A DNA stretch of 50,220 bases. Source: an uncultured Candidatus Saccharibacteria bacterium (GTDB lineage: Bacteria > Patescibacteriota > Minisyncoccia > Phycocordibacterales > GWA1-40-21). The stretch is taken from assembly GCA_964562105.1 (NCBI GenBank), contig CAZLRP010000003.1:15718-65937 (forward strand), given 5' to 3'. A model generated the notes under the pieces. The model saw only the letters and a program-made list of their open reading frames with translations, ran no database searches and had not been told where the DNA came from. This document shows positions 3,003 to 45,859 of the stretch, one piece after another. The number at the start of each line of letters is the position of its first letter. Within the stretch, counting starts at the first letter, position 1. The translations under genes and the position numbers were made by a program.

Positions 3003-3427
3003 CCGCCTCTCTTTGTTGTGAAGACGGTTTGTTTGCCGGTCAGGGAAAAGGTTACTGACAGCTTTTTTTGCGAAGGTGAGACCTTCGAAAGTTTTTAACA
3101 CAGAAAAATGCTTTTGTATAGTCTTGTTTGTTTTTGGGGCAGGTATAAAATCATTGCAGACAAATCCAATTCATAATTCAGAAAAAAGTTTTGGTTTTTA
3201 CAAATGTATTTTATATTAAGATTGAGTGGTCGAATTGATCAATCTCTTTTTAGTGTATATTTAGTAAAATGTGTTGTGGAGTTAAGAAAGCGATGAATTG
3301 TAGTTTCTACTTTGGACGCTTGGACTACAAGGAGCTAGTAGCGTAACCGGTCTTTTGTTGGGATCGGTATTTTTATTTTGTATTTTTATTAACCTTCGTA
3401 TGGATTAGGACTTTAAAAAGCAAATGA

Positions 3428-3826: not shown

Positions 3827-4888
3827 ATGAAAAAAATATTATTAAGTTTGTCAGTTATAGCAATAGTGGGAGTTATTGCAGTTGGTGCAACCAGAGCATT
3901 GTTCTCTGATACAGAGACATCAACTGGAAATACATTCACAGCCGGAACAATTGATATTTCAATTGATCAGACAAATCCATGGACAAAGAGTTATAACATC
4001 GGTGACTTGAAACCGGGAGAAACGGGTTATATCAACTTTGATATTTCAAACGTTGGAACAAATCCAGTCAATGTTTCCAAGAATTTAAGCGAATTTGTAA
4101 CAACTACTGGTTCAGTAGGATATACATGTGCTGGTGTTACTGCGGGTGTTTCTTCAGAACCAGAATGTGTAGCGGCACAAGCTAACTCTAGTAATGACGT
4201 AAATGATGTTCAAACTAAGATTATTTATGACTTGAGCGTAGAAGTTTATAACTCAGCAGGCACAAAAATTTGGTGGCAAGCAATTTACACTGGTGCCGAG
4301 AATAAAAGCCTAGCTGATATTTACGGAAGTGGACAGTATGTTGCACTCGGTATGATTCCAGCTGGAGGACATATGAAAGTCACTCAAAGCTATCACTTTA
4401 ATTCAAATGCAGGTAATGAATATCAGGGGGATACATTATCATTTAAGATGACCATTAATGGTGAACAACTACCTCAAGGCGAAACTGGTATAACAACCGT
4501 TGCTTTGGAAAATAAAGTACAAGGAACAAATAGTATTTGGGATATTGTACAGGGTGATAGTATAGATGGAACTTTAAGCTATAAGGTTCAAAGCCCAACG
4601 TTTGATTATACTTTCACTGGTAAAGTAGCGGCTACAGACAACTACACATTGATTTATGTTGGTACTACAAATGATTATCCAGGCGTAGGAAGTAAAGTTC
4701 TTGGAACAGGAAGTTTTGTTGCAGGAACCCCACTTACAATTAGTGGATCGGTTAATATTGGTGCAAGCATTACCAATGGAAAGGTTTGGTTGATCCCAAC
4801 CAGTTCTTACAATGGCAGTATAATGACATCATGGCCAGCTTCAAATATCTTGTTTGAAACAGGATTAATCAATTACACAAAAATTTAA
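3827..4888 (+). CDS. SipW-cognate signal peptide protein, TasA/CalY (camelysin-like) family with a C-terminal extra domain
   Basis: N-terminus ..VGAT/RALFSDTETSTGNTFTAGTIDI, then LKPGETG; C-terminal GNEYQGDTLSFKMTINGEQ of the TasA-like core. Confidence 0.85.
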   Translation: MKKILLSLSVIAIVGVIAVGATRALFSDTETSTGNTFTAGTIDISIDQTNPWTKSYNIGDLKPGETGYINFDISNVGTNPVNVSKNLSEFVTTTGSVGYTCAGVTAGVSSEPECVAAQANSSNDVNDVQTKIIYDLSVEVYNSAGTKIWWQAIYTGAENKSLADIYGSGQYVALGMIPAGGHMKVTQSYHFNSNAGNEYQGDTLSFKMTINGEQLPQGETGITTVALENKVQGTNSIWDIVQGDSIDGTLSYKVQSPTFDYTFTGKVAATDNYTLIYVGTTNDYPGVGSKVLGTGSFVAGTPLTISGSVNIGASITNGKVWLIPTSSYNGSIMTSWPASNILFETGLINYTKI

Positions 4889-5132: not shown

Positions 5133-6923
5133 ATGAAAAAAATAATTATCAGCTTGTGCATTATTGCTGTTGTGGCGGTGGTTGCTGTTGGTACTACTCA
5201 CTCCTATTTTTCTGATACCGAAACAAGCAATAATAATATTATTCAAACAGGTACAGTTGATGTAGATATTGATGGACAAAATCCTTGGACTGGCAAATTT
5301 GATTGGGAAAATATCAGACCAGGCGACACCAAAGAAATAACTTTTGTAATACACAATATTGGTACTTATCCGATTAAACTTTGGAAAATTATTAAAAATT
5401 TAACTACCGAAGAAAATGGAATCGCTGGGCCAGAACAAGACTGGTATACCGATAATAATGTCGGAGTCGCCAAGAATGACATTGATACGGCGATGGTTTA
5501 TGAAATGTATGTTGATGGTCAGATTGCTGTTGAAAAAGAAGCCGGAATCACACTGGATAAAATTAAAAATTATTATATGAATTTGGTGAAATTGGATACG
5601 GCGACAGACCCAAGCTATACCGGTCCGAATCCAAATGGCAGTGGGATATTAAACCCAGGAGGTTCGGTAACGGTTGTTCAGAGATATCATTTTAAAGAAG
5701 ATACCGGCAATTGGGCTCAAAGCGACAAAATGATTTTTGATATAGAAATTTTAGCACAGCAAGTCAGTGCGCCAGAACCAGTGAAGCAGTTGTCTTTTAT
5801 AAACAATAAAAATGTATTAGATAACAGTTGGAGCACGATAGCGGACAGTAGGGTTGGGCTTTTGAAATATGATTCAATAGCGCAAACTTTCAATTATAAT
5901 TTTCTTGGAGTTGGGCTTAGTCCTGCTACAAATTATTGTTTGATTTATTCCAAAGATCCTTGGACTGGAGGGGAAAAGATTTTAATTGACAAAGGTATGT
6001 CAGATGCGAATGGAAAAGTAAGTTTGATAGGCTCAATGGATACTGGTGATTTGCCAAATGCTGATGATGGTAATTATCCAACCGGAGCAAAAATTTGGTC
6101 TTTACCCTGTTCTAGCTCAGGCTATAATGAAAGTAGCCAAAGTGTCGGTTGGCCACCGCAAAATGATTGGCTTTTTGATAATTGGCCAGGGTTTATAAAA
6201 TATACGAATGGAGAAACGCCAGCTGAGCCAGCTGATGATCCACCTGCTAGTGGCAGTCAAACCATAATTATAAACGAATTAGGTGGCGATATTGGCAATC
6301 AATATGGTTATCAATTTGGAGGATATCCAACTGCAAATGTAACTTTTACATACAATACGCCAGCTCCCAATAAATTAAGCGGAACTATTACAGCTACGGG
6401 GTTGAAACCTTACGCAACCTATCAGGTAAAATTTATTGGTGATCCAACTAATGAAATGGCGAATGAATACATTGGATATAAAGGCAGATGGACAGTAACC
6501 AATGTCTCTTGTTCTGGTTCAGGGTGCAACAGAACAGATGCTCAATATGAAGCTAATAAAATTTCGCATGCTGAAACTATCGCTGGATATTTGGTTTGGG
6601 ATTTTTTCACGGCTGATTCAAGCGGTAATGCGACAAAAGTTGTGGAAACTGCAAACAGTTATCATGTGCTTTGGTCTGGTGGCGGAACATGCAATACGGT
6701 TGCCAATACTTATTTGGCAAATTTGGATTCAGCGCATCCTACTATTAAATTTTCTCCCGCGGACAAAGTTGATGGAGAAATTGAACGTGGCACCTGTGGC
6801 GGTTTGACCTTGAATCCTGGTACTTATGATTTAAAAATGGTGTTGACCGAAGAATCGTTCCATCAAAGTCCAGGCACTTGGGCAGAAGTATTAATGAAAG
6901 ATATTAATTTTGTTATCAATTAA
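5133..6923 (+). CDS. SipW-cognate TasA-family protein with C-terminal extension domains (start probably 5133; track start 5109)
   Basis: ..VGTT/HSYFSDTETSNNNIIQTGTVDV; IRPGDTK; GNWAQSDKMIFDIEILAQQ; paralogous to 3827-4888. Confidence 0.85.
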   Translation: MKKIIISLCIIAVVAVVAVGTTHSYFSDTETSNNNIIQTGTVDVDIDGQNPWTGKFDWENIRPGDTKEITFVIHNIGTYPIKLWKIIKNLTTEENGIAGPEQDWYTDNNVGVAKNDIDTAMVYEMYVDGQIAVEKEAGITLDKIKNYYMNLVKLDTATDPSYTGPNPNGSGILNPGGSVTVVQRYHFKEDTGNWAQSDKMIFDIEILAQQVSAPEPVKQLSFINNKNVLDNSWSTIADSRVGLLKYDSIAQTFNYNFLGVGLSPATNYCLIYSKDPWTGGEKILIDKGMSDANGKVSLIGSMDTGDLPNADDGNYPTGAKIWSLPCSSSGYNESSQSVGWPPQNDWLFDNWPGFIKYTNGETPAEPADDPPASGSQTIIINELGGDIGNQYGYQFGGYPTANVTFTYNTPAPNKLSGTITATGLKPYATYQVKFIGDPTNEMANEYIGYKGRWTVTNVSCSGSGCNRTDAQYEANKISHAETIAGYLVWDFFTADSSGNATKVVETANSYHVLWSGGGTCNTVANTYLANLDSAHPTIKFSPADKVDGEIERGTCGGLTLNPGTYDLKMVLTEESFHQSPGTWAEVLMKDINFVIN

Positions 6924-7497: not shown

Positions 7498-9727
7498 ATT
7501 AATAATAAAAAGAAATAAGAAAATTTTCAAGAAACTTTTGATGAGTTTCAGAAAAATTGAGCGAAAATCTAAAAAGTTTGCAATATTCTGTTTGAAAAAA
7601 AGCGGTATTATCCGAGATAAAAGAAAAAAACAATCTGTATGTGAAAAAATATTATTTAGATTTGCGACTATTATACTTATGGTTGCAGTGAGTATAGGAA
7701 TTTTAAATATTTCTCCAACAGATGCTTATTTTAATGACACGGAAAGTTCTACTGCCAATACTTATACAGTCGGAACGTTGGATTTTAGTGTAACTCCAGC
7801 TGGCGATTTTTCTCCTCAACCTACGCCAACACAAAATAGTTTACGGGATATTACGGTAGCGAAACTAGGCGATTTAGATTTTCAATATAAAGTGAAAGCA
7901 AGTAATGTTAGCGGTAGTTTTTGCCAGAATTTAAATTTAAAGGCGACTTTGAATGGCACTACTTTGTATGATGGTAATTTAACTAATTTTTATATTGCAA
8001 CGACGACTGACTTGGGAACTATTAATTTTACGGCCAGCTCAAACGCTCATAGTTTTAATCAAACTTGTAATTTTGATTTGGTTTTTATCGGCTGGCAGGT
8101 GAATTTAAATAATGAAAATTTAGGATTTAGCGATAAAAAAATAATCAGCAATAGTATCGTAGGAGGGCAAGATCAAGACGATGTGGTCTTGAATGAATTT
8201 TTGCCAAATCCTACGGGGGCTGATACGCAAGATGGTATTTTGGGTGAATGGGTTGAATTTTATAACAACAGCAACCACTCTATTGACATGACAGGTTGGT
8301 ATACGGAGGACGCTATAGGTGCAAGCCACAGAAAAATAATCAGCACGGCAACAACCTATAATGGCCAAACAACTATTGGCGCTAAAGGTAGCGGTTCTGA
8401 ATGGCTGGTATTGTTTATGAACGGCGAAATTTTAAATAATACAGGCGACACAATCAATCTTTATGATAATTATGGCGGGCTAGTTGATACTCACAGTTAT
8501 AACGGTTCTAATTACAATGTTAATGACACGCCGGGTGGAACTAATAATTTAGTTGCTTATCTGCCTTTCAATAATGATCTTTTGGACAAGAGCGGAAACA
8601 ACAATAATGGCACAAATAATGGTACAACCTTTACTACAGTTTCAAATGGGAAAGCTGAAGAGGCATTGAATTTGACAGGTACGCAATATGTAGAAATTCC
8701 AGATTCAGCCAGTTTGGATATTGCCAACCAAATCACGCTTGAGGCTTGGGTTTATCCAACAGCTTGGAGCTCTAATGAAAATAATATTTTGACTAAAGCA
8801 GGTGATGGTGACTATGGAGTTTGGAATTTGCACTATAAAACTGGCGGAGGTGGTTTTAGGTTTGAGTTGAATAATGGAGGAGTCTCTCATGCTTTATTTG
8901 AATCATCTCCTTCAACTGCTTTAGATACTTGGTATCATGTCGTGGGTGTGTATGATGGTAGCGAGATGAAACTTTATGTTAATGGAGTTTTGAAAGGTTC
9001 TTTGGCTACTAGCGGAAATATTGCTACCAACAACTCGCCGTTAAGAATTGGCAAGCAATTTTGGTGGAGTAATATCTATTCATATTGGTCAGGTAGAATT
9101 GACGAAGTCAAAATTTATAATCGTGCCTTAAGCGCGACAGAAGTTTTGGAACATTTTAATACTGTTAACGATGGAGCAACAAGTATTCCAGAAAATAAAT
9201 CTTTCGCTAGAATTCCAGATGGCGTAGGAGCATGGATTGATCCAATACCAACACCTGGCGGAACTAATAATTTCTCGGATATTTTGGAAACAATATCGGC
9301 AACAACAACTGAAGAATTTATAGCGACGTCAACTTCAGAAAATTCTGTCACCGGTGCTGACATTCCAGAAAATATCGCTATTAGCACAGAATCAGTAGAA
9401 TCAATTGCTACAACGACTGCTACAACAACTGCTACAACAACAGAAAATATTATTGAAGATTTATCGGCAACCTCAACACCGGAAATTGTGCCAGATATTG
9501 CTCCGGAAAATAATACGGATACGGCAAGCACAACTTCTCCTGTTGTTGACGCGGAAGCGGTTGTTGATATATCAGTACTAGTCGCACCAGAAGAAACAGT
9601 TGAAACAGAAGAAGTGGAAGAAGAAACTCAGCCTTTGCTAGAAGCTACGGAGAGCGAAGCAGAAGAAACCGAAGTATCAGAAACGGTAGAAGAAAATGTA
9701 GCAAATAATGTTGAAGAAATTATATAA
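7490..9727 (+). CDS. SipW-cognate secreted protein: TasA-like domain, lamin-tail domain, LamG/ConA-like domain and acidic Thr/Glu tail
   Basis: TDAYFNDTESSTANTYTVGTLDF; VVLNEFLPNP..EWVEFYN (LTD); ITLEAWVYP..WYHVVGVYDG..LYVNG..GRIDEVKIYNRAL (LamG). Confidence 0.8.
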   Translation: MFKLIIKRNKKIFKKLLMSFRKIERKSKKFAIFCLKKSGIIRDKRKKQSVCEKILFRFATIILMVAVSIGILNISPTDAYFNDTESSTANTYTVGTLDFSVTPAGDFSPQPTPTQNSLRDITVAKLGDLDFQYKVKASNVSGSFCQNLNLKATLNGTTLYDGNLTNFYIATTTDLGTINFTASSNAHSFNQTCNFDLVFIGWQVNLNNENLGFSDKKIISNSIVGGQDQDDVVLNEFLPNPTGADTQDGILGEWVEFYNNSNHSIDMTGWYTEDAIGASHRKIISTATTYNGQTTIGAKGSGSEWLVLFMNGEILNNTGDTINLYDNYGGLVDTHSYNGSNYNVNDTPGGTNNLVAYLPFNNDLLDKSGNNNNGTNNGTTFTTVSNGKAEEALNLTGTQYVEIPDSASLDIANQITLEAWVYPTAWSSNENNILTKAGDGDYGVWNLHYKTGGGGFRFELNNGGVSHALFESSPSTALDTWYHVVGVYDGSEMKLYVNGVLKGSLATSGNIATNNSPLRIGKQFWWSNIYSYWSGRIDEVKIYNRALSATEVLEHFNTVNDGATSIPENKSFARIPDGVGAWIDPIPTPGGTNNFSDILETISATTTEEFIATSTSENSVTGADIPENIAISTESVESIATTTATTTATTTENIIEDLSATSTPEIVPDIAPENNTDTASTTSPVVDAEAVVDISVLVAPEETVETEEVEEETQPLLEATESEAEETEVSETVEENVANNVEEII

Positions 9728-11874: not shown

Positions 11875-11947
11875 GCCATTGTAGCTCAGTTGGTAGAGCA
11901 CGTCATTGGTAATGACGAGGTCACCAGTTCGATCCTGGTCAATGGCT
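11875..11947 (+). tRNA. tRNA-Thr(GGT)
   Basis: Acceptor GCCATTG/CAATGGC; D arm AGCTCAGTTGGTAGAGC; anticodon CGTCA-TTGGTAA-TGACG; T loop TTCGATC; no encoded CCA. Confidence 0.95.
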
Positions 11948-12098
11948 CAACGAGCGAAGCGAGTTGAGCCTATTGAGTGAGCCAACTGCTTGGCTCACGA
12001 CCAGGATCGAAAGGTTTTTCCATACGAGCGTAGCGAGGCGGAAAAACACCTGGCTATGTAGTAGCCGATTCTGGTCAATGACAATTTGGAGTGATATT

Positions 12099-12171
12099 GC
12101 CACCTTAGCTCAGTTGGTAGAGCACCACTTTCGTAAAGTGGGGGTCCCCGGTTCGATCCTGGGAGGTGGCT
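12099..12171 (+). tRNA. tRNA-Thr(CGT)
   Basis: Acceptor GCCACCT/AGGTGGC; anticodon CCACT-TTCGTAA-AGTGG; T loop TTCGATC. Confidence 0.95.
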
Positions 12172-12177
12172 CATGGA

Positions 12178-15142: not shown

Positions 15143-15213
15143 TGGGAGATCGTCTAATGGTAGGACACGTCCCTCTGGAGGACGTTATCCTGGTTCGAGT
15201 CCAGGTCTCCCAG
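15143..15213 (+). tRNA. tRNA-Gln(CTG)
   Basis: Acceptor TGGGAGA/TCTCCCA; anticodon CGTCC-CTCTGGA-GGACG; T arm CCTGG-TTCGAGT-CCAGG. Confidence 0.95.
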
Positions 15214-15335
15214 CTTTGCAGAGCAGAACTAAATTGCGCCAATGTAGTGTTTACCCTTTGCCATGAGAACGCACCCAATATACTTTTCTCTAAGAAAGTA
15301 TATAATTGTAGTATACGAAAGTGAGATTAAGCATT

Positions 15336-15793: not shown

Positions 15794-16579
15794 ATGTTAA
15801 AAAGTACAAATCATTTAAAATCTATTCTCTCCTACATCCTCGGAGCCACTCTCGTAATTGGGGGAGTAGTCTTTGCTGGTACACTTACTCCTTCAGTAAG
15901 CATAGATACAGCAAACTTTGTAACTTTATCTGACATATACAACAAAATCATACTGAATACATACTCTACTTCTACTCACTCAATATCCACCACATCAGCT
16001 CCTGTAGCATCAATGTACACTCTTCTTGAAATATGGAATGGAATCCCCGCAATTGACTCCAGTAAAATGCTAGATACATACTCTCTAATGGGAGTTACAG
16101 GCGCAATAGCCGTAAAAACAAACGATAATGCAGTTACAATCACTTCCACTTCTACAAACAAACTTCTTCTTACTGTTCCAGCAGGTTATTATGGCGGTTC
16201 TGCTACTGTTTCTACAACTTCCACTTCTTTTGACCCCGCTAATATTGCAAATGGGGTGAATATTTTTGGAATCACAGGAACATTAGGAGTAGTATGGGAT
16301 ACTGCCGAGGTTGGTACTATGGATTGGGCTACAGCCGTCTCTACTTGCACAGGACGTGGATCCAGACTTCCAACTGAAGGAGAATTAATGAAGGGGTTAT
16401 CTGATCAATTTATACAGAGTCCAGCGATAGCTGATGGTTTTGTTCAAGAGGATTCTTATTGGTCAAGCAATGTGTTTTCATTTAATGACAGTTATGCTTG
16501 GCAAGCTTCAGCTGGCGAAAGTATAATGAGTGGTACTGGAGTAAAAACCTCTCTTGGATTAGTACGTTGTGTTCACTAG
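15794..16579 (+). CDS. Surface protein with a C-terminal DUF1566/CLec-like domain (paralog 1)
   Basis: Signal/TM, Thr/Ser-rich stalk, C-terminal RLPTEGEL..YWSS..AW..LVRCVH. Confidence 0.75.
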   Translation: MLKSTNHLKSILSYILGATLVIGGVVFAGTLTPSVSIDTANFVTLSDIYNKIILNTYSTSTHSISTTSAPVASMYTLLEIWNGIPAIDSSKMLDTYSLMGVTGAIAVKTNDNAVTITSTSTNKLLLTVPAGYYGGSATVSTTSTSFDPANIANGVNIFGITGTLGVVWDTAEVGTMDWATAVSTCTGRGSRLPTEGELMKGLSDQFIQSPAIADGFVQEDSYWSSNVFSFNDSYAWQASAGESIMSGTGVKTSLGLVRCVH

Positions 16580-16656
16580 GTTTTAATTTTTAGATGATTT
16601 TATTAATTAATAAATAAGATTAAATTCGTTTATAATTTAATATTAATAATGTTATT

Positions 16657-17370
16657 GTGTTAAAATTCTCAAATTTTTTTAAACATCTTCTTTCGTACAT
16701 TCTCGGAGCCACTCTCGTAATTGGGGGAGTAGTCTTTGCCGGTACACTTACTCCTTCAGTAAGCACAGATACGGCAAACTTTGTAACTTTATCTGATATA
16801 TACAACAAAATTATACTGAATACATACTCTACTTCCACTCACTCTATATCCACCACATCAGCTCCAACTGCTTCAATGCATACACTATATGAAATATACA
16901 ATATCATACCTACCTTATTACCTGCCACTATTCTCACCAATACCACCATTATGGGTGTAGCAGGAACTTACAACACATCAAATCTTATCCCAGGTAATGT
17001 AGCTACAGGAACCGCTTATGGAACAAGTTCTGTGGGGACTCTTGTTGAAGCACAAGCTACGGAGTGGGATGCAACTGATAATCCTGCCGGTAATGTTAAT
17101 TGGTTTGCGGGAGGTACGTATTGTGCCAGTCTTTCATCAGTCGGAGGAACAAAAGACGGAATGCCTTGGAGATTGCCATCGCAAACTGAATTGATAGCTA
17201 AATATAACGGAGATCATTCTGGTTTTGAGGAGTACGGTACGTATTGGTCTGGTACTACGGATACAGATCCGGAACACAGTGACTCCGCCTACGGTGTCCA
17301 TATGACATTTGGTCCCGCATGTTGCGCTAGCAAATTATATCTAACCGCGCTTATTCGCTGTGTTCGTTAA
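16657..17370 (+). CDS. Surface protein with a C-terminal DUF1566/CLec-like domain (paralog 2)
   Basis: N-terminal ~80 aa nearly identical to paralog 1; C-terminal WRLPSQTEL..YWSGT..AY..LIRCVR. Confidence 0.75.
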   Translation: MLKFSNFFKHLLSYILGATLVIGGVVFAGTLTPSVSTDTANFVTLSDIYNKIILNTYSTSTHSISTTSAPTASMHTLYEIYNIIPTLLPATILTNTTIMGVAGTYNTSNLIPGNVATGTAYGTSSVGTLVEAQATEWDATDNPAGNVNWFAGGTYCASLSSVGGTKDGMPWRLPSQTELIAKYNGDHSGFEEYGTYWSGTTDTDPEHSDSAYGVHMTFGPACCASKLYLTALIRCVR

Positions 17371-17404: not shown

Positions 17405-17476
17405 TTGACAAACCACCTAAACAAATCTATAATCAAGATAGAAAGTCATTGCTGATTCTGATGAATCGGTGAGTTG
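17405..17476 (+). promoter_or_regulatory. Sigma70 promoter plus conserved structured 5' leader, copy 1
   Basis: TTGACA-N17-TATAAT, then TAGAAAGTCATTGCTGATTC-TGAT-GAATCGGTGAGTTG; homologs at 20214 and 22453. Confidence 0.85.
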
Positions 17477-17523
17477 AAAAATAAAAAATCTGATAAAAAG
17501 GACGTTCCTTAAAGGAGGACGAT

Positions 17524-18867
17524 ATGTACAGGGAATTAAAATCACCAATTGCCGTTCAATTAGAGATGACAACAAAATGTAATCACAAATGTATCCACTG
17601 TTACAATCATTGGAGGAAAGATTCCGTACGAGATAAGACCCTCAGTGAAGATGATGTAAAAAATATCATTGAAAATCTGAGAAAAAGTGAAGTTCCCAGC
17701 TTACTGATTACGGGTGGAGAACCGATGCTTTATCCTGATTTGATGCTCAAGGCACTTGAAATTGGGAAAAGTGCTGGGTTGGAGTATTCCTTAAATTCTA
17801 ACCTGACACTTGTAACTCCAGAAATTGCAAAAAAGTTAAAGAAACTAAAAATTGGTGTGTTAACGTCAATTTTATCTTTTGACAGAAATGTGCATGATAG
17901 TATAACAACGTTAGATGGTTCTTTTGATAGACTCATTGCGGGAGTTAAGCTCATGCAGAGGTATGGAGTTTCAGTTAGTGCGAATATGGTGGTCATGCAA
18001 AAAAACATAGACCAAATTTATGAGACAGGTAAGTTTGTTCATGGTTTGGGCTTGTCGGGGTTTAGAGCAACGAAAGTTCACCCGGCACAGGGATCATCAG
18101 ATTTCGAGAAAATAAAACTTCCACCAGAAAGAATTGTTGAAATTTTTGACAACCTTATCAAATTAAGAGAAGATTTCGGGCTCAAGGTTGATTCTCTAAC
18201 CACATACCCAACATGTCTTGTAAAAGACATGGATCGTTATGGTCAATTTATCCTAAGGCGAAGTTGTAGTGCTGGTAAAACTGGTTGTACAATAGGTGCT
18301 GATGGACAAGTTCGGCCATGTGGACACTCTGACGATAATTATGGCAATGCTACCGAAGAATCACTTCTTCAGATTTGGCCAAGATTGAAAAAGTGGAGAG
18401 ATGATTCTTTATTACCAAAAGAGTGTAAGGAATGTAAGTATGTTATCGAATGTAGTGGCGGTTGTCGCATGGATTGCAAATTCTATGGAAAAATCGATTC
18501 AATGGATCCATATGCGACGGGAAAAGATTTTAATTACATTCCTCAAAAACCAGAAAAAGTTGTACTTCTCCATTCTGAAACAGAGTTGATTATTGATCCG
18601 ACTCTTCGTTTTAGGCTAGAGAAATTCGGGTCGGTATTGATTGTTGAAAACAATGTCACATCAATAATTAGCCCAGATTCCGCAAAGTTGTTGAAGGAAC
18701 TAATGGGCACAATTTTTACACTGAATAGTATTTCCAATAAATATGGACTCGACGTGGAAATTGTGCGTAATTTTTTTACAAGCTTACGCAAGCAAAAAGT
18801 TATCTGTTTGTCGGATAAAATCTCTAAAGTAAAAGAAAGGAGGTTGTGTTATGGCAAAAACTCTTAA
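17524..18867 (+). CDS. Radical SAM/SPASM domain peptide maturase with a probable C-terminal RRE (PqqD/MftB-like) domain
   Basis: CNHKCIHC (CxxxCxxC); ITGGEP; SPASM CSAG..C..GADGQVRPC and CKEC-x5-C-x3-C; C-terminal LRFRLEKFGSVL followed by helices. SD AAGGAGG. Confidence 0.9.
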   Translation: MYRELKSPIAVQLEMTTKCNHKCIHCYNHWRKDSVRDKTLSEDDVKNIIENLRKSEVPSLLITGGEPMLYPDLMLKALEIGKSAGLEYSLNSNLTLVTPEIAKKLKKLKIGVLTSILSFDRNVHDSITTLDGSFDRLIAGVKLMQRYGVSVSANMVVMQKNIDQIYETGKFVHGLGLSGFRATKVHPAQGSSDFEKIKLPPERIVEIFDNLIKLREDFGLKVDSLTTYPTCLVKDMDRYGQFILRRSCSAGKTGCTIGADGQVRPCGHSDDNYGNATEESLLQIWPRLKKWRDDSLLPKECKECKYVIECSGGCRMDCKFYGKIDSMDPYATGKDFNYIPQKPEKVVLLHSETELIIDPTLRFRLEKFGSVLIVENNVTSIISPDSAKLLKELMGTIFTLNSISNKYGLDVEIVRNFFTSLRKQKVICLSDKISKVKERRLCYGKNS

Positions 18868-18988
18868 TTTAGGGTTTGTCCAAATGGCAACTGCGGGTAA
18901 TATGTTCGGGAATAGTTCCGAACACTTAAGCTGCGATTGCGTCAGTTGTAATTGCGACTGCTGGTGCGATTACGACAAAGGTAATTAA
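18851..18988 (+). CDS. Putative RiPP precursor peptide 1 (45 aa, 6 Cys); not in ORF track
   Basis: Manual translation MAKTLNLGFVQMATAGNMFGNSSEHLSCDCVSCNCDCWCDYDKGN. SD GAAAGGAGG, overlaps the rSAM stop, terminator follows. Confidence 0.85.
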   Translation: MAKTLNLGFVQMATAGNMFGNSSEHLSCDCVSCNCDCWCDYDKGN

Positions 18989-19008
18989 AGTCTTATAATA
19001 AAGACTTG

Positions 19009-19038
19009 CTGGCTAATAGAAATATTAGCCAGTTTTTT
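19009..19038 (+). terminator. Intrinsic terminator after precursor 1
   Basis: CTGGCTAATA-gaaa-TATTAGCCAG-TTTTTT. Confidence 0.8.
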
Positions 19039-19133
19039 ATTAGATTGACAAATCACTTCAATTAGTATTACAATTATTTTAGAAGGTTATTATCGATAGG
19101 GTATGAACAAAATTCTTAATAAGGAGGTAAGCC

Positions 19134-19253
19134 ATGAAAGAAACATTAGAGTTGGGATTTGTTGCATTGGTTGATGGTCAGGTAGATACGAATGCAAGTA
19201 ATGATCTTAATGTTTGCGACTGCTACTCTACAATCCCAGGCAATCCAAATTAG
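19134..19253 (+). CDS. Putative RiPP precursor peptide 2 (39 aa, CDC); not in ORF track
   Basis: Manual translation MKETLELGFVALVDGQVDTNASNDLNVCDCYSTIPGNPN. SD AAGGAGGT; own TTGACA..TACAAT promoter; shares TL-x-LGFV leader and CDC with peptide 1. Confidence 0.8.
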   Translation: MKETLELGFVALVDGQVDTNASNDLNVCDCYSTIPGNPN

Positions 19254-19273
19254 AGTCTTATAGCAAACACTCG

Positions 19274-19301
19274 CTGGTCAACGAAATGTTGACCAGTTTT
19301 T
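19274..19301 (+). terminator. Intrinsic terminator after precursor 2 (homologous to 19009-19038)
   Basis: CTGGTCAAC-gaaat-GTTGACCAG-TTTTT. Confidence 0.8.
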
Positions 19302-19332
19302 ATTTAAGTTAAATATAGCGTATAATAATGAA

Positions 19333-20312: not shown

Positions 20313-20876
20313 ATGGAAACTAGGCGTATTTTTTTAAGACCGGCTGAAAAGTCGGACATTCCTCTTTTATATATTTGGAGGAATACCGAATCGTATCGGG
20401 AACTTTTTTCCGGAAGAAGAAATATTATCAGTATGGAAGAATTTGAGGTGGAATATAAGCGGGACGCCGAAAGACTCAAACATGTACAGTTTCTTGTTTG
20501 TTTGAAAACAAACAAGAACCCCATTGGTTTGATATATTCATACAACTATGTTCCAACTGATGGACATGTTTTTATGGGTATATTTGTAGACGAACACTTT
20601 CGTAAGATTGGTTATGGAGCAGAAGCGACGATTTTATTCGTTAAGTTTCTGTTTGACATGTATCCAATACATAAAGTGTTGGCAGAAATATACTCCTACA
20701 ATAAGCCGTCTTTATCTGGGTCAAAGAATCTCGGTTTTGTTGTAGAGGGTGAATTCAAAAATCACCGCTTCTATAAAGGGAGGTATTGGAATGTTCTGAG
20801 AATGGCCCTTTATAGAGAAAATTTAGCACGATTAGAAAAGATTCATAACAAAATCTCTTTAATAAACAGTTCATAA
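20313..20876 (+). CDS. GNAT N-acyltransferase, RimJ/RimL family
   Basis: IFLRP N-terminus; FRKIGYGAEA acyl-CoA motif; N..S..G..NLGF..EG; SD GAGGAGGT. Confidence 0.85.
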   Translation: METRRIFLRPAEKSDIPLLYIWRNTESYRELFSGRRNIISMEEFEVEYKRDAERLKHVQFLVCLKTNKNPIGLIYSYNYVPTDGHVFMGIFVDEHFRKIGYGAEATILFVKFLFDMYPIHKVLAEIYSYNKPSLSGSKNLGFVVEGEFKNHRFYKGRYWNVLRMALYRENLARLEKIHNKISLINSS

Positions 20877-20915: not shown

Positions 20916-21077
20916 ATGACGAAATTCTTAACCGGTGGCGGTGGCGACGGAGATGAAGACGACGGTCAGAAAGTCGATGAAGATTTCGATGATACGGCCG
21001 CAAGTGAACAGGGAAATGACACACCAGAACCCTCTGAACCAGCTGAGCCTTCCGAACCGTCCGTTCCAGATCAGTAG
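20916..21077 (+). CDS. Putative 53-aa acidic Gly/Asp/Pro-rich peptide; not in ORF track
   Basis: Manual translation MTKFLTGGGGDGDEDDGQKVDEDFDDTAASEQGNDTPEPSEPAEPSEPSVPDQ. SD GAAAGGAGGT; terminator follows immediately. Confidence 0.75.
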   Translation: MTKFLTGGGGDGDEDDGQKVDEDFDDTAASEQGNDTPEPSEPAEPSEPSVPDQ

Positions 21078-21152: not shown

Positions 21153-22436
21153 ATGAGTAAATCAAGAGAACTAGGAATAGAATTTTATAAAGAAAAATTA
21201 CCAAACAATTCTTCTATTTTTTTATATAAAAGAAAGGGTTTTCCGATAAACATACAGATTGTTTTTAATGCAGGTGCTCGTTTTGGTAAAAAACCGGGCA
21301 TATCGCATTTTTTGGAACATTTATTACTAGCTGGATCAAAAAAATATCCAACAAAAGATGCCCTCTGTGTTCCATTAGAAAATATTGGTGGATCAATAGG
21401 TGCGTCTACTGGCTCAGAATTTTTATACATCAATGTAAATATAGCGGACAAAGAAGATATAGACATTGCTATTGATGTGATCAATGAATCGGTTAATAAT
21501 TCGTTATTTGATAGTAAAACCATCGAAAATGAAAGAAAAGCCATTCTTTCTGAAATCGGTAATAGAAAATCAAACCCCTCATCAAATGTTTGGGATATTT
21601 ATAAAAAAGTATTTTTTCAAGAAACTATTCTTCAAAATTCAGGCTTGGGCACGTCGGAGATAGTTTCTAGTACCACAAAAGAAGAACTTGTTGATGAATA
21701 CTCAAGACTTATAAAAGAGGGACGCCCGACTATAATGGTAAGTGGGGATGTTGATATAGATTCTTTGAAGGATAAATTTAGTATTATTTTAAATGGGACA
21801 AAAGATATTTTTTCAGGTCTTATCGGAACAAGTTTACCTATAGTAAAAAACAAACGTATTGAGGTTGAAGAATATACAGCTGATCAAGTTCATATGATTT
21901 TAGGTTTTCGAACAGGCATACATTCTATTGTAGATAATATTCCAGCACATATATTATCTATGTTGCTGGCTAAAGGCAGAACTTCTATATTAATGTCTGA
22001 ATTGAGATACAAAAATGGTTTGATATATAATATTAGTGGTTCGTCTAATTATTTTGCTGATTATTCAATGTGGCTTATAAATACATCAACAGATAAGAAA
22101 AATGTTCAAAAAGTAATAGATCTCATTCTTTTGGAAATAAATAAAATTAAAAATAATGGTATTACTGAAGATCAATTGAATTTTGTTCGGTCAAAATCAA
22201 TTAAATCACTAAAATTTTCATTACAAACATCCGCATCTTTAGTTAATTCTAATATAATTGAAGTGATGATGAATCAAAATGATTCTTATACATTGGATGA
22301 TTTTGTTACTGATATGGAAAAAGTAACAGTAGAAGATATTTTAAAATGTGCTCAAAATATATTTAATACGGATAATTTTTTTATCGCACTTTGTGGCAAT
22401 ATAGAAGAAAAGGATATCAAAATAAATATATCTTAA
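21153..22436 (+). CDS. M16 family (pitrilysin-like) zinc peptidase
   Basis: Inverted zinc motif GISHFLEHLL (HxxEH), ERKAILSE, and C-terminal ELRYKNGLIYNI. Confidence 0.9.
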   Translation: MSKSRELGIEFYKEKLPNNSSIFLYKRKGFPINIQIVFNAGARFGKKPGISHFLEHLLLAGSKKYPTKDALCVPLENIGGSIGASTGSEFLYINVNIADKEDIDIAIDVINESVNNSLFDSKTIENERKAILSEIGNRKSNPSSNVWDIYKKVFFQETILQNSGLGTSEIVSSTTKEELVDEYSRLIKEGRPTIMVSGDVDIDSLKDKFSIILNGTKDIFSGLIGTSLPIVKNKRIEVEEYTADQVHMILGFRTGIHSIVDNIPAHILSMLLAKGRTSILMSELRYKNGLIYNISGSSNYFADYSMWLINTSTDKKNVQKVIDLILLEINKIKNNGITEDQLNFVRSKSIKSLKFSLQTSASLVNSNIIEVMMNQNDSYTLDDFVTDMEKVTVEDILKCAQNIFNTDNFFIALCGNIEEKDIKINIS

Positions 22437-45751: not shown

Positions 45752-45836
45752 GGAGACGTCGCATAGCGGTCTAGTGCGTTCGCTTGGAAAGCGAATGGGG
45801 TGAAAGCTCCCGCGAGTTCGAATCTCGCCGTCTCCG
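45752..45836 (+). tRNA. tRNA-Ser(GGA)
   Basis: Acceptor GGAGACG/CGTCTCC; anticodon TTCGC-TTGGAAA-GCGAA; long variable arm; T loop TTCGAAT. Confidence 0.95.
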
Positions 45837-45859
45837 CATCAAAATTTTAAACAAAAAAA

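Follow-up and report, generated by a model that had tools for sequence, protein, structure and literature searches.

In a 50,220-nucleotide (nt) stretch of DNA from an uncultured Candidatus Saccharibacteria bacterium (contig CAZLRP010000003.1; the whole stretch is called the window below) we find a small group of genes that probably constitutes a three-part cassette for making a ribosomally produced peptide with post-translational modifications (RiPP). Its components are an enzyme with radical S-adenosylmethionine (SAM) and SPASM domains, short Cys-rich precursor peptides (pep1 and pep2) and a predicted peptidase with an HExxH...E motif, and thioethers are the likeliest cross-links in the product. 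An earlier reading of the window (the original prediction) had picked out the enzyme and the two peptides within 17405-19301, an interval that according to a consensus scan runs from a TTGACA-17-TATAAT promoter to the second of two terminators. It overlooked both the third conserved gene, that of the HExxH protein, and a C-terminal domain of the enzyme that resembles a RiPP recognition element (RRE). The coordinates of all features are collected in Table 1.

We propose that the enzyme would bind the precursor leader, xK.L.LGFV(S)M, as a strand through its RRE-like C-terminal domain and would link residues of the Cys-rich core by 5'-deoxyadenosyl radical chemistry, in which auxiliary Fe-S clusters would take part. 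The radical SAM/SPASM core would abstract a hydrogen atom and join the sulfur of a Cys to a carbon of another residue, most likely as a sactionine- or ranthionine-type thioether. The HExxH...E protein, probably transcribed separately, would then take off the leader. In this scheme pep1 would be the ancestral substrate, while pep2, a tandem duplicate that only the window has and that carries a single CDC, would probably serve as a second one.

A conserved precursor peptide under selection

The original prediction placed two small open reading frames (ORFs) with Shine-Dalgarno sites after the radical SAM gene, and both are present exactly where it put them, each with an AGGAGG-type ribosome-binding site 6-7 nt before its ATG. 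The AAGGAGG sequence lies 5-7 nt 5' of the ATG in the radical SAM ORF as well as in pep1 and pep2. The start of pep1 overlaps the end of the radical SAM gene by 17 nt. The six Cys predicted for pep1 are found at residues 28, 30, 33, 35, 37 and 39, with CDC at residues 28-30.

We collected 100 loci encoding homologs of the enzyme (referred to by L numbers), 83 of which have enough downstream DNA for a precursor test. A precursor was counted when a small ORF with at least 4 Cys in its last 30 residues ended no more than 600 nt downstream on the same strand. The original prediction had named beforehand the lack of such conservation as grounds for rejecting it. A Cys-rich small ORF was found downstream in 58 of the 83 loci compared to 64 of 1137 control windows (5.6 %), an excess that chance does not come near to explaining. 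Several apparent misses do hold a peptide that fails the strict criterion, and in L004-6, L043 and L056 a Cys-rich precursor ORF lies upstream instead. A metagenome scan with a single protein as query had yielded only 13 loci, few of them close. The close relatives L001, L003, L082, L086 and L094-L100 have one pep1-like peptide each beside the radical SAM homolog, with the consensus xK.L.LGFVSM...GC[DE]CVSCNCDCWCD[YW].., and a hairpin homologous to the pep1 terminator, GCCGGCTAGCAGAGATGTTAGCCGGC, stands 3' of the peptide in relatives.

The peptide sequence is kept at the level of the protein. CDCWCD is unchanged in 12 pep1 orthologs although TGT and TGC, and likewise GAC and GAT, alternate in its codons. 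In the last nine core codons of these orthologs pairwise comparison gave 204 synonymous and 94 nonsynonymous differences, and in the leader codons 188 and 69, respectively. Because both core and leader are maintained through many synonymous changes, we conclude that the peptide is under purifying selection and that pep1, as judged by this comparison, is a real, selected gene.

Across the wider family the leader is the recognizable part. The motif G[FYIV][VIE][ST][LMIF] was found by regular expression in 43 of the 100 loci, some of these in false frames, and about 35 real precursors across subfamilies carry it, with leaders such as GYVSLM...ACYCNCGCACYVTG, GIVSL... and GFESL.../GFETI.... Both the length and the Cys count of the cores are hypervariable, and no feature other than Cys is shared by all of them; aromatic residues recur in the cores of other subfamilies, for example CYCNC..CYV. 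Since conserved leaders are combined with variable cores, we read this pattern as the signature of a RiPP family. A short precursor of this make-up, adjacent to the enzyme, is what radical SAM-SPASM RiPP systems have, and the locus is, by its sequence, of that kind.

The peptides, which the original prediction noted as absent from its ORF track, are not missing from every gene call. Both are predicted in a large protein collection (P0162, P0165); in relatives, gene callers left the peptide uncalled in 7 of the 7 that keep a gap of 173-265 nt. Only 12 pep1-like peptides are present among 5.8 billion proteins, and none bears an informative name. Neither pep1 nor pep2 matches any Pfam or NCBIfam model, SCIFF-type models included (no NCBIfam match at E<=1).

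The radical SAM/SPASM enzyme and its C-terminal domain

We detected 166 homologs of the enzyme, nearly all of about 431 aa. Those that are named carry the label 'radical SAM protein' and little else, and their bins are mostly Patescibacteria or other members of the candidate phyla radiation (CPR); one source labels a homolog 'MoaA/NirJ family Fe-S oxidoreductase'. In an alignment of 21 homologs C248, C266, C301, C304, C310 and C314 are invariant and C255 nearly so, which fits the auxiliary clusters of SPASM enzymes. C231, located 5' of the SPASM region, is likewise invariant. With the CX3CX2C motif and a SPASM domain furnished with auxiliary Cys, the enzyme has in its sequence the generic features of a radical SAM-SPASM RiPP maturase.

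The AlphaFold2 model of the enzyme has a pLDDT of 91. Its best Foldseek matches in the PDB are SuiB, anSME, SkfB, CteB, TigE, PqqE and ChlB, at about 20 % identity; the top matches are SPASM enzymes that act on RiPPs or peptides, with SuiB and anSME in the lead. The enzyme reaches the cut-off of no NCBIfam equivalog model, and the SCIFF maturase model is not among its best 25 NCBIfam matches. Together with the unmatched peptides, this bears out the original prediction that the system does not correspond to the SCIFF, subtilosin, mycofactocin or pyrroloquinoline quinone (PQQ) pathways as they are known.

The ORF in the window exceeds its 431-aa homologs by 16 aa. The additional tail (18820-18867) is not conserved and overlaps the ribosome-binding site and start of pep1, and in the model residues 434-447 score below 50 and are predicted to be disordered. 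Loss of a stop codon may explain the tail and may have brought about translational coupling.

Beyond the SPASM region the model contains a further domain. By DSSP its strands cover residues 355-357, 361-365, 370-374 and 377-382, followed by helices at 384-393, 400-407 and 411-423. An LRFRxExFG block is conserved in this domain, with R364, E366 and G369 kept in the 21 aligned homologs. A beta3-alpha3 arrangement is typical of RRE domains, and going by predicted topology only we regard this domain as RRE-like. It would bind the conserved leader as a beta strand. To our knowledge an RRE fused to the C-terminus is unusual among such systems.

A predicted metallopeptidase as third component

The gene that follows the peptides encodes a protein with no match in Pfam, NCBIfam or PADLOC. 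Residues H147, E148, S150, H151 and E175 are invariant in 32 aligned sequences, corresponding to an HExxH motif with a downstream Glu, the signature of gluzincins. In sequence the protein thus has the zinc ligands expected of a clan MA peptidase. Its AlphaFold2 model reaches a pLDDT of 95. The weak local Foldseek matches are mostly to M1 (LTA4 hydrolase, aminopeptidase N), M61 and M60-like proteins, and the best PDB sequence match has E=0.2.

A homolog lies directly 3' of the peptide in every close relative with enough sequence. At distant loci the gene after the peptide encodes a protein of 220-245 aa with HE..H at the same relative position and [KR]E[AS]L about 25 residues later. An iterated hidden Markov model (HMM) joins the 220-245-aa and 281-aa forms into one family, which is found beside the radical SAM gene in 45 of the 100 loci; of the 48 family ORFs found, 46 have HE..H at the corresponding position. 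Proteins matching Pfam Peptidase_MA_2 take the position of this gene in L014, L050 and L053, and the L049 protein in that position resembles, judged from its sequence, what we take to be a papain-fold (C39-like) peptidase. Clustered at 50 % identity, the family amounts to 345 representative clusters in a set of 1.84 billion proteins. From its sequence features and position we consider the HExxH family to be probably the leader peptidase of the system.

A TATAAT-like box 5-8 nt before the ATG, again with no ribosome-binding site, is also seen in L086, L094, L096, L098, L099 and L100. Because the -10 box abuts the ATG and this layout is kept in relatives, the HExxH mRNA is probably leaderless and separate from the operon of enzyme and precursor.

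Individual loci vary. L099 has a second member of the HExxH family (5419-6072, 217 aa, HELTH) right after the first and a second, shorter radical SAM gene (538-1575, 345 aa) upstream. L095, whose radical SAM enzyme is 64 % identical, has no HExxH gene; its peptide is longer, at 67 aa, and is followed directly by a gene of the phage integrase family (region 7609-8934), and upstream there are SIR2- and SMC-like genes. The L095 context gives a hint that mobile elements or defence islands can harbour the cassette.

A second peptide specific to the window

The regions of pep1 and pep2 align as DNA from the ribosome-binding site through the 3' sequence to the terminator hairpin, and we therefore interpret pep2 as a diverged tandem duplicate of pep1. 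This alignment, the shared leader residues and the SPASM domain of the enzyme agree with the original description of two homologous precursors beside a maturase. Five of the six conserved leader residues between T4 and V10 differ only synonymously between pep2 and pep1 (codon pairs ACT/ACA for T4, CTT/TTA for L5, TTA/TTG for L7, GGG/GGA for G8 and GTC/GTT for V10). The two-peptide layout is unique to the window, every relative examined having one peptide. The gap from the enzyme to the next gene is 465 nt in the window and 173-354 nt in relatives.

One can ask whether pep2 is a substrate at all. It could be a decaying duplicate, with pep1 alone being matured: pep2 lacks the invariant third Cys of CDCWCD, its core ends in STIPGNPN, and neither the 11 close loci nor the 12 database peptides provide an ortholog or second peptide. 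Decay would not readily account for an intact ORF that has a ribosome-binding site, a promoter-like site and a terminator of its own, keeps the leader residues T, L, L, G and V through synonymous changes and holds CDC at the same residue numbers as in pep1. On balance, we think from these sequence features that pep2 is likely a functional second substrate, and decay a less likely though plausible account.

Proposed cross-linking chemistry and alternative readings

Thioether formation is our best guess for the chemistry by analogy, held with about even confidence. As far as we know, every SPASM maturase that has been characterised and has a Cys-rich core as substrate forms thioethers. We favour this chemistry because Cys is the only universal feature of the cores and because StsB sets a precedent: this MftC-like radical SAM/SPASM enzyme forms three Cys-Gly sactionines in a CxCxC core (PMC10288494). 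The original prediction had pointed to links from Cys to Asp as in PapB. As a general chemistry for the family this does not hold, since the ACYCNCGCAC subfamily, with ACYCNCGCACYVTG, has no Asp in its core and Asp/Asn is consequently not a universal acceptor.

A number of points weigh against the proposed scheme. Its steps come from computation throughout, that is, from sequence, structure models and analogy. The best HMM matches of the enzyme are to heme enzymes rather than RiPP maturases, namely NirJ2 (130.5 bits against a cut-off of 500) and AhbD (123.9 bits, also against 500), all far under the cut-off. The Pfam PqqD model matches the C-terminal domain in none of the 20 members tested, and a PDB profile search with this domain returned winged-helix matches that are non-significant (E 0.05-1). 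The HExxH protein has no significant structural neighbour in the PDB (best Foldseek E about 1, and at least 1.1). Selection on pep2 rests on a single paralog comparison, as pep2 has no ortholog. Residues that would accept the thioethers are not evident in the cores, and the cassette in the window includes no exporter or immunity gene.

The heme-enzyme matches, along with the homolog labelled 'MoaA/NirJ family Fe-S oxidoreductase', raise the question of whether the small ORFs are mere chance next to a NirJ/AhbD-like tetrapyrrole enzyme or another radical SAM enzyme of small-molecule metabolism. The peptide ORFs show conservation and purifying selection and keep their synteny in most loci, the two scores fall far short of 500 and there are no heme genes in the neighbourhood, so that we consider this very improbable; we rejected an identity as heme d1 or alternative heme enzyme on the same scores and neighbourhood. 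An identity as prokaryotic viperin, a defence protein, was also rejected: the PADLOC pVip match covers only residues 11-190 of 447, and the NCBIfam viperin score is 68.7 bits against a cut-off of 180. A more serious alternative keeps the cassette and changes the chemistry. All orthologs have an aromatic residue right behind CDC (W or Y in DC[WYF]) and aromatics recur in other subfamilies, while the top structural matches of the enzyme are SuiB, which makes a Lys-Trp cross-link, and anSME; overall similarity does not predict the function of uncharacterised radical SAM enzymes (PMC10288494). C-C or C-O cross-links on the aromatic residue, epimerisation, or oxidation such as that of Cys to formylglycine by anSME could then be the outcome. 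We find this doubtful, given that Cys is the one feature present in all cores and that StsB makes thioethers on a CxCxC core (PMC10288494).

The product, moreover, need not resemble an antibiotic. It might be a metal-binding peptide or a peptide-derived cofactor, with a CxC lattice like that of a metallothionein or chalkophore, serving the reduced metabolism of a CPR cell. Repeated Cys-x-Cys flanked by Asp or Glu is a classic metal-binding pattern, and the cores have CxC with flanking Asp/Glu. The lack of an exporter, immunity or C39 protease gene in the window cassette, and the wide occurrence of the system in genomes with very few biosynthetic clusters, would agree with such a role. Against it, length and Cys number are hypervariable among the cores, which is unlike PqqA or MftA, and if every Cys became a thioether no thiolates would be left for a metal; we regard a metal-binding or cofactor role as rather unlikely.

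Distribution and significance

The original prediction assigned the system to a lineage with few known natural products, and the relatives are indeed mostly CPR/Patescibacteria: at least 43 of the 80 species-representative loci listed carry CPR lineage labels, others being labelled archaeal, proteobacterial or otherwise by their sources. Genome-mining surveys credit Patescibacteria with few biosynthetic clusters or none. We found no description of the cassette family in CPR in the literature searched, which omits most subscription journals, including large atlases of radical SAM RiPPs, and the family may have been listed before in a bioinformatic survey. The cassette is claimed by none of the family-level NCBIfam and Pfam models run. 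Because the precursors are usually uncalled and the peptidase has no family assignment, standard pipelines likely miss the cassette or report only 'radical SAM protein'.

It is conceivable, and we advance this tentatively, that the cassette represents a RiPP class not described before and typical of CPR/Patescibacteria, with members scattered over other lineages, metagenome-assembled genomes labelled archaeal among them, and with a new cross-link topology or a metal-binding scaffold. Such a class would be defined by the C-terminally fused RRE, the G-F-V-S-M-type leader, the dense CxC core and the new small HExxH peptidase family. In that case the dense CxC lattice may be closed into rings that are very small or arranged like a ladder, or else it may be a scaffold for metal binding that serves the relationship between episymbiont and host.

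CPR/Patescibacteria have tiny genomes, yet the compact three-gene cassette recurs in them. Should the peptides be produced, they would be candidates for mediating how these episymbionts interact with hosts or competitors. The cassette also offers a new substrate scaffold in its dense CxC core, a new candidate pair of leader and RRE, and a new family of small predicted metallopeptidases.

Genomic context

Table 1. Features of the cassette, in coordinates of the window
Feature	Position	Strand	Remarks
Promoter-like TTGACA-17-TATAAT	17405-17433	+	12/12 consensus match, 5' of the radical SAM gene; sequence match alone
Radical SAM/SPASM peptide maturase (predicted), 447 aa	17524-18867	+	Pfam Radical_SAM 8e-27, Fer4_12, SPASM
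CX3CX2C radical SAM cluster motif (C19, C23, C26)	17578-17601	+	invariant in 21 aligned homologs
SPASM region, auxiliary-cluster Cys C248, C255, C266, C301, C304, C310, C314	18265-18477	+	Pfam SPASM = residues 248-305
C-terminal domain, residues ~350-430, RRE-like topology	18571-18813	+	3-4 beta strands, then three helices (predicted)
Precursor peptide 1 (pep1), 45 aa	18851-18988	+	leader motif LNLGFVQM, core SCDCVSCNCDCWCDYDKGN
Intrinsic terminator after pep1	19008-19033	+	11-bp stem, then T run
Second promoter-like site TTGACA-18-TACAAT	19045-19074	+	11/12 consensus match, 5' of pep2
Precursor peptide 2 (pep2), 39 aa	19134-19253	+	leader TLELGFVAL, core VCDCYSTIPGNPN
Intrinsic terminator after pep2	19273-19297	+	11-bp stem and T run
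TATAAT -10 box of the HExxH gene	19321-19326	+	6 nt before ATG, no ribosome-binding site
HExxH...E protein, 281 aa	19333-20178	+	predicted zincin-type metallopeptidase, candidate leader peptidase; H147, E148, H151, E175

Three sets of neighbouring genes were considered as further members of the cassette and rejected. The M16 peptidase gene (21153-22436) has a counterpart near a radical SAM homolog only in L087 and in L096, where it is 4-5 kb off and in another order, and the GNAT gene (20313-20876) only in L096, at the same distance and reordered. Because these occurrences are confined to L087 and to L096, distant and rearranged in the latter, we attribute the proximity to local synteny and not to association. 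A 53-aa, highly acidic ORF rich in Gly, Asp, Glu and Pro (20916-21077, +) separates the GNAT and M16 genes. The Lcl_C paralogs upstream of the cassette (15794-17370) never co-occur with the radical SAM gene elsewhere. They are tandem genes (15794-16579 and 16657-17370, +) with near-identical N-terminal regions that resemble a signal or anchor and a C-terminal Lcl_C domain, whose match is weak, one being just over and one just under the Pfam cut-off.

In L100 an ATP-grasp gene (MvdD-like, RimK) followed by a called 44-aa ORF (980-2143) is positioned immediately 5' of the radical SAM cassette and may represent a neighbouring RiPP cluster of the graspetide type.

Elsewhere in the window, whose GC content is 30-37 %, a full-length match to the cyclic di-GMP-II riboswitch aptamer (3277-3361, +; 59.5 bits against a gathering score of 53.5) is located about 470 nt 5' of the ORF 3827-4888, in what is apparently a CPR genome. 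Four tRNA genes (11875-12172, 15143-15214, 45752-45837) correspond to Thr-GGT, Thr-CGT, Gln-CTG and Ser-GGA, with the tRNA-Gln gene about 2.3 kb 5' of the cassette promoter.

Comparison with known systems

The StsA/StsB/StsC system of Streptomyces sparsogenes, to which BlaA/BlaB is related, is similar in having a radical SAM/SPASM maturase related to MftC and a CxCxC core. There the RRE is a separate protein, StsC, whereas here an RRE-like domain is fused to the C-terminus of the enzyme. StsA has a GxGxG acceptor block that the window peptides lack, the leaders differ, and no HExxH partner is reported for StsABC. The StsABC pathway requires its RRE and forms three S-C-alpha thioethers that give a hairpin (PMC10288494). 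The window enzyme scores 74.3 bits with the StsB model, over residues 14-182 only and against a cut-off of 625, and 59.9 bits with the AlbA model against a cut-off of 850. SkfB is found at E=2e-9 in the PDB sequence search and at 23 % identity in the Foldseek match. Membership in the sactipeptide families of AlbA, SkfB and StsB was rejected on the AlbA and StsB scores.

Ranthipeptides (SCIFF/CteA-CteB, the freyrasin pair PapA-PapB and NxxcA-NxxcB) likewise have short precursors with about six Cys among Asp, Asn, Glu and Thr. Their radical SAM-SPASM enzymes make Cys thioethers to beta or gamma carbons, and CteB is one of the top structural matches of the window enzyme. The spacing is Cx3D in ranthipeptides but CxC here. 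The RRE is N-terminal in CteB and PapB. Since the precursors do not match the SCIFF model and the enzyme scores 74.1 bits against a PapB cut-off of 340, we rejected membership in the ranthipeptide/SCIFF family.

Mycofactocin (MftA/B/C) and PQQ (PqqA/D/E/F) biosynthesis share with the cassette a radical SAM-SPASM enzyme and a short precursor, and they have an RRE and a peptidase that completes maturation where the cassette has an RRE-like domain and a predicted peptidase. Their precursors have invariant cores (C-terminal VY and E..Y, respectively), whereas the cores of the window family are Cys-rich, hypervariable and without these motifs, and none of the other genes of the two pathways is present here. 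Membership was rejected on these cores and on partial matches of the enzyme to MftC (90.9 bits against a cut-off of 265) and PqqE (61.2 against 381).

The HExxH family can be compared to the clan MA gluzincins (M1, M61, Peptidase_MA_2), with which it shares HExxH plus a downstream Glu and weak local structural matches around the motif. The spacing between HExxH and Glu is 18 residues in M1 and 23 residues in the window protein, and the family differs from these gluzincins in being small (220-290 aa), single-domain and mostly helical. By analogy, the system as a whole would work like the known radical SAM-SPASM RiPP pathways, being closest in logic to StsABC and the ranthipeptides, and it is set apart from them by the placement of the RRE-like domain, the leader motif, the core pattern and the peptidase family.

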